Source: Lachnospiraceae bacterium (GTDB lineage: Bacteria; Bacillota; Clostridia; Lachnospirales; Lachnospiraceae). From it: a stretch of 64,000 bases of DNA. The stretch is taken from assembly GCA_024682555.1 (NCBI GenBank), contig JAIKZD010000115.1:10628-74627 (forward strand), written 5' to 3'. Positions within the stretch are counted from its first letter, which is position 1. The number at the start of each line of letters is the position of its first letter. The position numbers and the translations under genes are program-made. The notes under the pieces are model-generated. The model did no database searches. It saw only the letters and a list, made by a program, of their open reading frames with translations, and was not told the DNA's origin. Below, one piece after another: positions 29,494 through 30,023 of this stretch.

Positions 29494-30023
29494 GACACTA
29501 AAAACAAGACTTTGTGGCAAAATTAGTGTATCGGCGGGAACAGCCCGACACTAAAAAGGTGACTTCGAGGCAAAATTAGTGTCCGTGGAGGCCAAGATCG
29601 ACACTAAAAACAAGACTTCGTGGCAAATTTAGTGTCTGGGAAGCCAGAGACCGACACTAAAAACAAGACTTCGTGGCAAAATTAGTGTCCGTGGAGGCCA
29701 AGCCCGACACTAAAAACGGGGCTTCGAGGCAAAATTAGTGTCCGGGGAGGCCAAGAACGACACTAAAAACAAGACTTCGAGGCAAAATTAGTGTATCGGC
29801 GGGAACAGACCGACACTAAAAAAGTGACTTCGAGGCAAAATTAGTGTATCGGCGGGAACAGATCGACACTAAAAACAAGACTTCGAGGCAAAATTAGTGT
29901 CTGGGCAGACTGAGACCGACACTAAAAAAGGGACTTCGTGGCAAAAATAGTGTCCGTAGAGGCCAAGATCGACACTAAAAACAAGATTCCGTCGCGAAAT
30001 GCGTGTATCGGCGGCATTTAAGG
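29494..30023. repeat. Non-coding tandem array: 10 units with an exact 53-bp period, each a 37-nt inverted-repeat-ended element plus a 16-nt purine-rich linker
   Basis: GACACTAA occurs at 29494, 29547, 29600, 29653, 29706, 29759, 29812, 29865, 29918 and 29971. The consensus is GACACTAAAAACAAGACTTCGWGGCAAAATTAGTGTC plus a linker. No ORF of 60 aa or more on either strand. Confidence 0.95.

Follow-up and report, generated by a model that had tools for sequence, protein, structure and literature searches.

The ten 53-bp units that follow one another head-to-tail at positions 29494–30023 form a real, non-coding and indel-free array. It lies between two cell-envelope genes arranged tail-to-tail in the genome of an uncultured Lachnospiraceae bacterium, in a 64,000-nt stretch of DNA that was analysed as a whole (hereafter the window). 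Classed from the sequence of one genome, the array is on balance best read as a lineage-specific, non-coding minisatellite of the VNTR type (“false-CRISPR” class) that grew in place. What defines a false-CRISPR is that its “spacers” lack diversity and that cas genes do not accompany it; the majority of those in the defining study are tandem repeats (Zhang and Ye, PMC5294841). Here, direct head-to-tail repeats recur in non-coding DNA with a period of 53 bp, within the range of about 10–100 bp that characterizes minisatellites, the “spacers” are non-diverse, no cas gene is encoded in the 64 kb, and three relatives (L003/L004, L006, and L007) lack the array at the orthologous site.

The regularity of the array that was reported by the first-pass annotation is found in every unit: GACACTAA starts all ten of them, at 29494 + 53n, and no indel interrupts the period. 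Tandem Repeats Finder returned a period of 53 with 9.3 copies (score 520) and scored periods of 106 and 159 higher, a repeat search found the start-to-start spacing of 53 seven times, and the 37-nt consensus had seven matches at three or fewer mismatches (0 expected). Stop codons occur in two of the three frames per unit and the longest ORFs in the array comprise 20–31 aa, consistent with the initial statement that none reaches 60 aa. Each unit consists of a conserved block of 36–37 nt with 8-nt inverted ends and a variable segment of 16–17 nt. Because position 37 co-varies with linker family A (A at 37 in units 1, 6, and 7), the conserved block is better delimited at 36 nt and the variable block at 17 nt. 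The variable segments are mutually homologous and fall into three recurring families, whose order along units 1–10 (A B C B B A A C B A) was described correctly at first, as was the presence of GGA in seven of the ten linkers. G41 hardly varies, and units 1–9 all have G44, A49, G50, and C53.

Conservation is distributed very unevenly within the unit. Between families, the cores differ at 1–6 of 37 positions and the linkers at 6–11 of 16 (about 10% vs. about 50% divergence), and units 4 and 8 differ at one of 37 core positions vs. seven of 16 linker positions. The 21-nt “loop” is nearly as conserved as the stems. Two core types, common and variant, alternate mostly as dimers (Table 1). The decay noted earlier for unit 10 is also seen in its nhmmer E-value (1.8e-5 vs. 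about 1e-16 for units 1–9). Some longer words are unit-specific, for example the 31-mer GACTTCGAGGCAAAATTAGTGTCCGTGGAGG.

Table 1. Units of the 53-bp array and adjoining features, in window coordinates.
Feature	Position	Strand	Core or description	Linker
Upstream convergent gene	26487..29342	+	951-aa multi-pass membrane protein; weak, sub-threshold DUF6541 match	
Second tandem array	29328..29412		17-bp unit CGACACCGCAGATGATA, about 5 copies	
Unique 81-bp stretch between arrays	29413..29493		includes perfect 12-bp palindrome GATATCGATATC (29427-29438)	
Unit 1	29494..29546		common core: CAAGA at 12-16, T at 20 and 22, A at 37	A (…CAGCCC)
Unit 2	29547..29599		variant core (GGTGA)	B (…AAGATC)
Unit 3	29600..29652		common core; T at position 29 gives 9-bp stem	C
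Unit 4	29653..29705		common core, equal to consensus	B (…AAGCCC)
Unit 5	29706..29758		variant core (CGGGG)	B (CGGGGAGG…AAC)
Unit 6	29759..29811		common core, A at position 37	A (…CAGACC)
Unit 7	29812..29864		variant core (AGTGA), A at position 37	A (…CAGATC)
Unit 8	29865..29917		common core, equal to consensus	C (variant TGGGCAGACTGAGACC)
Unit 9	29918..29970		variant core (AGGGA); A at 30 breaks one stem pair	B (CGTAGAGG…)
Unit 10	29971..30023		decayed terminal unit, 7-11 core differences from others	A-like only at start
Unique stretch, array to GT39 gene	30024..30074		hairpin ATAGACC (30046-30052) / GGTCTAT (30068-30074)	
Downstream convergent gene	30071..32050	-	GT39/PMT_2 glycosyltransferase, by homologues	

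The 8-nt inverted repeat is non-random (P = 0.0055 for a perfect 8-nt inverted repeat in a tandem 53-mer of the same composition, 2000 shuffles). The proposed 37-nt element with perfect 8-nt ends holds as far as the inverted repeat is concerned, but the 8-bp stem is perfect in five of the ten units (A at 37 in units 1, 6, and 7, A at 30 in unit 9, and decay in unit 10) and the conserved block ends at 36 nt. In either register, 91–94% of the stem cells keep the inverted repeat. Pairing of the arms is possible over either the 21-nt “loop” or the 16-nt “linker”, and in the folding model the linker-spanning stem is the more stable register on both strands (mean about −9.1/−9.4 vs. −6.6/−6.4 kcal/mol). 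Since the arms can pair in both ways, a string of ten hairpins separated by single-stranded linkers is just one of two readings; the capacity to form hairpins was recognized correctly at the outset, but the register assumed for them is the weaker one. The ten units show no compensatory change at any base pair; all stem changes break a pair. Folding energies give no strand preference. On the minus strand, the hairpins are bordered by UUGUUUUU and UUUUG. A linker-to-loop pseudoknot, formed by AAGCCC (unit 4) and GGGCTT (unit 5), was rejected upon inspection by hand as it is not reproduced in other units.

The genomic context bears on the array's history. The convergent gene pair is kept in three independent relatives at 48–65% protein identity; their 3' ends overlap by 14 bp without any intergenic DNA, and both proteins align to the very ends with their orthologues. 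Thus, the whole 728-bp spacer in the Lachnospiraceae genome, comprising the 53-bp array and a second array of 17-bp units, is a derived, lineage-specific insertion. A further 678-bp contig (L005), 79% identical at the nucleotide level to the terminal part of the GT39 gene, also has no array downstream, but looks chimeric on both sides and was given little weight. Exact-protein look-ups for conspecific genomes, in which the copy-number polymorphism that typifies a VNTR would show, revealed none on record. The upstream protein is an orthologue of 786-aa proteins in the relatives with an additional Ser/Asp-rich insert, and the GT39 protein, which is 100% identical to NCBI MCR4740635.1 (from a MAG, annotated there as 642 aa), is an orthologue of 586-aa proteins with two inserts. 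All these inserts are lineage-specific, of low complexity, and encoded by 12–36-nt repeats. Copy 1 of the 17-bp array takes in the final codons of the upstream gene, stop codon included. Because this array re-copies the stop-codon region and both proteins carry repeat-encoded inserts, the locus is prone to local repeat expansion. The 81-bp stretch at 29413–29493 contains no convincing terminator, and the hairpin at 30046–30074 overlaps the GT39 stop codon and is followed by a U-tract on neither strand. The initial description of the neighbors as two convergent GT-C genes is borne out by homologues for the right-hand gene (GT39/PMT_2); the left-hand gene, with only a sub-threshold DUF6541 match, is a plausible candidate GT-C gene. 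According to Pfam annotation of all large ORFs, the window contains chromosomal housekeeping and glycopolymer genes, and no tRNA or tmRNA was found in it. A replication terminus was rejected, as gene orientation is unchanged and the GC skew stays positive across the site.

Growth in place would have started from a seed unit with the 8-bp inverted repeat that was amplified by slippage or unequal recombination. With the 16–17-nt segments diverged, recombination or gene conversion may initiate only in the identical 36-nt cores; such core-limited conversion would keep the cores homogeneous and shuffle the linker types as cassettes, which could account for the aperiodic order of the families and the decayed end unit. 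In cis, the array would separate two genes whose 3' ends overlap in relatives, and would add about ten weak hairpins (predicted at −6 to −12 kcal/mol) to any 3' UTR that extends into the array. The minus strand corresponds to the direction of potential read-through from the GT39 gene, and in such a transcript U-runs would flank each hairpin. By analogy with REP325 of E. coli, a tandem cluster of palindromic units that acts as partial terminator and mRNA stabiliser (PMC4550694), the array might thus serve as a leaky attenuator and a barrier to 3'-exonucleases. Where REPs lie between convergent genes, both genes also tend to be more highly expressed (bioRxiv 10.64898/2026.03.23.713779). The most likely molecular effect of the array is one in cis, where it may function as a spacer or hairpin barrier between convergent transcripts; selective neutrality is an equally good possibility. 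The 64-kb window gave no sign of a dedicated partner acting in trans.

Several observations count against this explanation. The conservation of the core relative to the linker is sharper than simple decay predicts, and purifying selection acting on a sequence-specific site would explain it as well as core-limited gene conversion does. A “loop” nearly as conserved as the stems would not be required for a pure hairpin function. The only terminator-like site in the array is weak and lies on the minus strand at the junction of units 6 and 7 (29816–29793); only one of ten units passes this simple scan, and loops of 16–21 nt are atypical for terminators. No similarity between unit and flanks supports an in-situ origin of the seed, as Smith-Waterman comparisons of both flanks and the 17-bp array with the 53-bp array scored no better than shuffles. 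If the array is only a minisatellite, it is a clean repeat-spacer look-alike that could be mistaken for a guide array or sponge RNA, a potential strain-typing marker, and an example of how repeats growing locally can drive apart two convergent genes that overlap. The array would gain in importance if the contrast between core and linker were the result of selection, since we know of no sequence-specific hairpin or binding array of such regularity in Firmicutes.

In that case, the 36-nt core would be under purifying selection as a specific binding module for some protein, acting either as curved DNA or as an RNA hairpin array, a minority reading to which we assign a small but appreciable probability. 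The three linker and two core classes would then tune spacing or affinity, and the array would represent a lineage-restricted chromosomal scaffold or decoy, new in Lachnospiraceae, beside cell-envelope glycosylation genes. At the DNA level, the selected cores would be protein-binding sites phased on one face of the helix, as in a sopC-like centromere or a scaffold for a nucleoid protein or regulator; this, too, is unlikely but deserves consideration. The core is far more conserved than the linker, non-stem positions included, the tandem direct repeats with an inverted repeat in each recall sopC, and the period does correspond to five helical turns (about 5.05), as was pointed out initially. 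In addition, under wedge models no other 265-bp stretch of the window is predicted to be as curved as the array, whose end-to-end/contour ratio of 0.37–0.47 is the window minimum (window median, 0.92). However, 13% of column-permuted arrays with the same period were at least as curved, indicating that the predicted curvature is largely a generic effect of the period, and it was dropped as a sign of selection. The AA-dinucleotide harmonic at 10.6 bp is just 0.40, weaker than that at 17.7 bp, and half-sites spaced 24 and 29 bp apart (centre to centre) do not match a simple dimer operator. Candidate partner genes such as parA/parB, rep, or a recombinase are not encoded in the 64 kb, although partition or rep genes would be expected next to a plasmid centromere or iteron on a plasmid or prophage replicon; there is no plasmid or phage similarity, and the array is missing at the relatives' orthologous site.

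A mobile origin was also considered, in which a small palindromic element of the REP/BIME or REPIN type inserted at the convergent 3' ends and was then multiplied; we regard this as rather unlikely. The extragenic position at a tail-to-tail junction would suit such an element, as would the dissimilarity of the unit to local flanking DNA, and the conserved palindromic unit with few linker types and two alternating core types resembles the mosaic of palindromic units and linker motifs that is described for BIMEs (PMC2817692, PMC3333891, and PMC4550694). Against this reading, no further copy, even a diverged one, was detected in the remaining 63.5 kb, a sequence that includes about 30 intergenic regions (nhmmer --max, best E = 4.9), and the high-copy dispersal of REP/BIME elements (usually >100 copies) is not seen within the window. 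All ten units are direct, unlike REPs, which alternate in orientation within BIMEs (PMC2817692). The stems are AT-rich and lack a GTAG-type 5' tetranucleotide, and no Y1 transposase (RAYT) is encoded in the 64 kb. Searches beyond the window agree with the earlier statement that no described element has this unit. Rfam gave no match to the array at the gathering threshold (whole window) or at E ≤ 10, where the sole noise match (E = 8) fell in the 17-bp repeat. No phage or plasmid record matched the unit by blastn, and a scan of GTDB-representative genomes, which yielded no related sequence, as well as of JGI metagenomes and IMG/VR, produced chance matches only. One of these lies in the 3' end of the replicase gene on a levivirus contig (L002) and agrees at 25 of 25 required bases, but its identity ends almost exactly at the bases demanded by the pattern. 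Six unrelated phage hairpins share the stem of this match and continue with TTTT; we treat the match as a coincidence.

The first-pass annotation had likened the array to the CsrB/RsmZ-type sponges. We consider it improbable that the array is a trans-acting multi-hairpin ncRNA serving as sponge or scaffold for CsrA or another RNA-binding protein. It does contain ten repeated hairpin modules, the alternative register would place the GGA segments of families A, B, and C in loops, and GGAGG occurs three times on the plus strand vs. 0.9 expected (P about 0.05). Because the window encodes a chemotaxis receptor, the organism may be motile and may carry csrA; tblastn with a CsrA query did not find csrA in the window. 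GGA is depleted in the 530 nt, with eight occurrences observed, whereas shuffles give 13.0 ± 2.9 and the window-wide density predicts 15.8; A.GGA is found once and AGGA not at all. GGA is found roughly once per 15–17 nt in CsrB/RsmZ, vs. about once per 66 nt in the array. Simple consensus scans revealed neither a promoter-like site facing the array nor a terminator flanking it. Together with the weaker assumed register, the stems without covariation, in which each change breaks a pair, and folding energies without a strand preference, these data argue against the sponge.

An assembly artefact, i.e. wrong copy number or order or a chimeric join in a short-read MAG, is very unlikely. The source is indeed a MAG, and tandem repeats are classic sites of collapse or expansion, but the longest exact internal repeat is 37 bp, thus all k-mers of at least 38 are unique, and ordinary reads cover two to three units. 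The join is considered genuine because the flanking genes are neighbors in three relatives.

An orphan RNA-guide array, either CRISPR or TIGR-Tas (stem-loop or dual-repeat), is hardly credible and already fails on the defining features: despite a 36-nt “repeat” and a degenerate last unit in a two-tier pattern of conservation reminiscent of repeats and spacers, and despite the palindromic edges, the conserved CUU, and the UG…CCA strings that families B and C share with TIGR repeats (compared with PMC12045711 and bioRxiv 10.64898/2026.09.09.750476), the “spacers” are 16–17 nt long, mutually homologous and of three families only, where CRISPR arrays have unique spacers of about 26–72 nt between repeats of 23–47 nt, and the variable stretches of 3–5 nt and 12–16 nt are not diverse, and the hairpin interiors (16 or 21 nt) are too small for the two variable, box C/D-flanked 8–12-nt spacers per unit and the loop of about 9 nt between them that define TIGR-Tas. 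Neither a cas nor a Nop-domain (tas) gene was found in the 64 kb, the unannotated ORFs of the window had no Pfam or NCBIfam match, two of them (21093–21962 and 17271–18023) had no match among PDB sequences, and both flanking genes are conserved genes of the glycosylation type.

Comparison with known systems places these readings in perspective. Tandem units, palindromic edges, short variable segments, and the conserved CUU are shared with stem-loop TIGR arrays, but the interior is too short for dual spacers, the segments lack diversity, and no Tas gene accompanies them in the window. CsrB/RsmZ RNAs likewise consist of repeated hairpin modules, some with GGA in potential loops; the array differs from them in its GGA depletion, in lacking the A(N)GGA consensus, and in having no promoter or terminator of its own. 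The sopC site of plasmid F consists of 12 direct repeats of 43 bp, each with a 7-bp inverted repeat bound by SopB. Strict phasing of direct repeats and a short inverted repeat in each are thus common to both, but the array has another period and an unrelated sequence, and is located in a chromosomal housekeeping context without nearby partition genes. Like REP325 and other REP/BIME clusters, it is an extragenic tandem cluster of palindromic units that follows a gene and uses few linker types; in contrast to them, it is confined to a single locus in the window, has direct units and AT-rich stems with large loops, has no RAYT gene in the window, and resides in a Firmicute. The MIRUs of Mycobacterium tuberculosis (53-bp class), an example of bacterial intergenic minisatellites (VNTRs), are found within operons, often with small overlapping ORFs, whereas the array lies between convergent genes. 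Finally, although it has no sequence relationship to any described VNTR and its contrast between core and linker is sharper than simple decay predicts, the array shares with VNTRs and false-CRISPRs the head-to-tail period of tens of bp, the division into conserved and less conserved parts, the non-diverse “spacers” without cas genes (here, in the window), the intergenic location, the degenerate end unit, and the absence from the orthologous site of relatives (PMC5294841).

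The ten units of the array follow one another with the exact 53-bp phasing described in the first-pass annotation, and their linkers fall into the three families and the order (A B C B B A A C B A) that it gave. A repeat search returned a spacing of 53 between successive repeats seven times, the 37-nt consensus had 7 matches at ≤3 mismatches vs. 0 expected, and the longest ORF within the array is ≤31 aa. Tandem Repeats Finder scored the period of 53 at 520, with higher scores for periods of 106 (582) and 159 (670). The 106-bp period outscores the 53-bp one because the cores, which comprise a CAAGA class (6/10 units) and G-rich variants (4/10 units), sit mostly in variant-common dimers. 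Just 0.55% of shuffled tandem 53-mers of the same composition contain a perfect inverted repeat of 8 nt; the palindrome thus genuinely belongs to the founding unit. The stem previously described as perfect is so in only five of the ten units. The boundary of the proposed 37 + 16 nt division shifts: position 37 tracks linker family A, and the split is therefore 36 conserved and 17 variable nucleotides. A core segment (TCGAGGCAA, unit positions 19-27) resembles a linker-B segment (TGGAGGCCA, positions 40-48) at 7/9 positions, which hints that the 53-bp unit may hold two related halves.

Features of the array, its spacer and related loci (window coordinates unless a locus is named)
Feature	Coordinates	Description
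Spacer holding the array	29342 (951-aa membrane-protein gene end, +) to 30071-30073 (GT39 stop codon, -)	728 bp; parts in order are the next four rows
17-bp tandem array	29328-29412	unit CGACACCGCAGATGATA, three perfect and two diverged copies
Unique stretch		81 bp
53-bp array	29494-30023	ten head-to-tail units, each opening with GACACTAA at exactly 29494 + 53n
Unique stretch		47 bp; includes the hairpin at the GT39 stop codon
Perfect 12-bp palindrome	29427-29438	GATATCGATATC, in the unique stretch separating the two arrays
Hairpin ATAGACC…GGTCTAT	30043-30074	overlaps the GT39 stop codon
Ser/Asp-rich insert	27999-28347 (repeats 28088-28290)	951-aa protein; 12/24/36-nt tandem repeats
Coding tandem repeat, rho	46268-46396	in frame, period 18, N-terminal part
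Coding tandem repeat, rsmF	39321-39412	in frame, period 30
TetR N-terminal domain protein	33713-35899	728 aa
Glycopolymer-locus ORFs	191-3001; 9709-11286	no Pfam or NCBIfam match
Glycopolymer-locus ORFs	17271-18023; 21093-21962	no Pfam or NCBIfam match; no match in PDB sequence comparison
Tail-to-tail overlap in relatives	L006 8348-8361; L007 4652-4665; L003 9748-9761	14-bp shared coding sequence of 786-aa membrane-protein and GT39 genes
GT39 C-terminal fragment	L005 1-678	79% nucleotide identity to window 30077-30362
Phage hairpin	L002 3594-3630	TTTTTAGTGTC-N11-GACACTAATTTTGCC, end of replicase ORF

In three independent assemblies, homologues of both flanking genes (48-65% identity) are likewise arranged as a convergent pair, and in each their 3' ends share 14 bp (…GATAAATGATAGTATAGCCCGG…) with zero intergenic DNA; this conserved overlap leaves no room for terminators. 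The window's two flanking proteins align with these homologues up to the last residue, and the spacer is therefore a lineage-specific insertion or expansion. Its 17-bp array begins in the final codons of the 951-aa reading frame and duplicates the stop-codon region; on the minus strand it also holds two weak promoter-like sites, and it has CGACAC in common with the point where the 53-bp units join. The low-complexity inserts of both flanking proteins, one of them Ser/Asp-rich and two in GT39 (about aa 220-250 and 454-490), are missing from the 48-65%-identical homologues and are lineage-specific. The further repeats in rho and rsmF suggest a genome prone to repeat expansion; local growth of repeats is therefore a general trait of this region.

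The large ORFs of the 64 kb, which derive from an uncultured member of the Lachnospiraceae, are all housekeeping or cell-envelope glycopolymer genes, among them IMPDH, purH, two GGDEF-EAL proteins, MBOAT, rho, prfA, rsmF and an MCP; the window has neither a cas, tas, par, rep or transposase gene nor a tRNA. The right-hand gene product is 100% identical to the GT39 glycosyltransferase MCR4740635.1 (NCBI), encoded on a 105-kb contig. A short ENA contig (L005), on which unrelated sequence borders the GT39 fragment (AT-rich on the upstream side, another co-directional ORF on the downstream side), is probably a chimera or a gene remnant. The left-arm context of the hairpin at the GT39 stop codon, CTTATAGACCG, equals one half-site of IR1, the QacR operator of S. 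aureus, and the TetR-domain protein lies 3.7 kb away; this likeness is a post-hoc, tentative one.

The search for the unit elsewhere that the first-pass annotation recommended revealed no copy, even diverged, when a unit profile was run over the relatives' loci and the remaining 63.5 kb of the window. Scanning GTDB-representative genomes, JGI metagenomes and IMG/VR for the unit's pattern gave nothing convincing, nor did blastn against phage and plasmid records or Rfam, and no conspecific assembly is on record. The single metagenome match, a hairpin in a levivirus-like ssRNA phage contig (L002), agrees with the minus-strand unit at all 25 pattern-required bases and just one beyond; the same stem occurs in six unrelated phage hairpins, and we judged the match a coincidence, the similarity stopping almost exactly at the pattern-required bases.

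Units differ at 1-6/37 core positions and, between families, at 6-11/16 linker positions; units 4 and 8, for example, differ at 1/37 and 7/16. Homogenisation confined to the core could produce this pattern without selection: recombination requires a stretch of identity, which the cores alone supply, and would hold cores alike while shifting linkers as cassettes. The mosaic order seen here, with its linkers in duplicate and its decayed last unit, is what such homogenisation would be expected to leave. Selection on the core is the other explanation, and both fit the data from this one array in one genome. A selected, sequence-specific binding array would be an interesting outcome and is, in our estimation, unlikely. 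The helical phasing invoked for it is reflected in predicted curvature: in two dinucleotide wedge models, the array is the window's most curved 265-bp stretch, with an end-to-end/contour ratio of 0.37-0.47 vs. a window median of 0.92. Yet 13% of column-permuted versions of the unit give arrays at least as curved, and the modelled curvature follows largely from the 53-bp period and gives no evidence of design.

Two hairpin registers are possible in the tandem array because the core ends are mutual reverse complements. Stems around the 16-nt linker are predicted to be stronger than those around the 21-nt A-rich segment on both the plus strand (mean -9.1 vs. -6.6 kcal/mol per unit) and the minus strand (-9.4 vs. 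-6.4 kcal/mol), and folding favours neither strand. By pair counts, 91% and 94% of stem cells are paired. The covariation that had been proposed as a check did not appear: there are zero compensatory changes, every departure being a broken pair, and covariation therefore gives no support to an RNA fold kept by selection. The stronger minus-strand hairpins have UUGUUUUU and UUUUG on either side; just one of them passed a simple terminator scan, and a promoter scan found no promoter-like site facing the array. The suggested CsrA sponge fails, since nothing points to the array being transcribed as a unit of its own and its plus strand is depleted in GGA, the opposite of the CsrB/RsmZ pattern (8 in 530 nt vs. 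13.0 ± 2.9 in shuffles and 15.8 from the window-wide density; AGGA 0 times, A.GGA once).

The array is real, regular and unique in sequence; we somewhat favour reading it as ordinary in kind, namely an intergenic minisatellite that is specific to this lineage and could form hairpins. The firmer part of this reading is that it arose in situ and has no partner; in cis, it may serve as a spacer, a leaky attenuator or an exonuclease barrier for the convergent transcripts.

Among known systems, CRISPR membership fails on spacer length and diversity, TIGR-Tas membership on spacer geometry and the lack of a Nop-domain gene in the window, and centromere or iteron membership on the lack of partner genes in the window. 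Tandem repeats described as "false-CRISPR" combine a repeat-spacer look with non-diverse spacers and no cas genes (PMC5294841), and all three properties are found here, the last within the window. Membership of the REP/BIME family fails on dispersal within the window and on unit orientation. The array's architecture is nevertheless similar to that of BIME clusters, and its effect probably is too; in one such cluster, E. coli REP325, tandem palindromic units within a 3' UTR partly terminate transcription and stabilise the mRNA.
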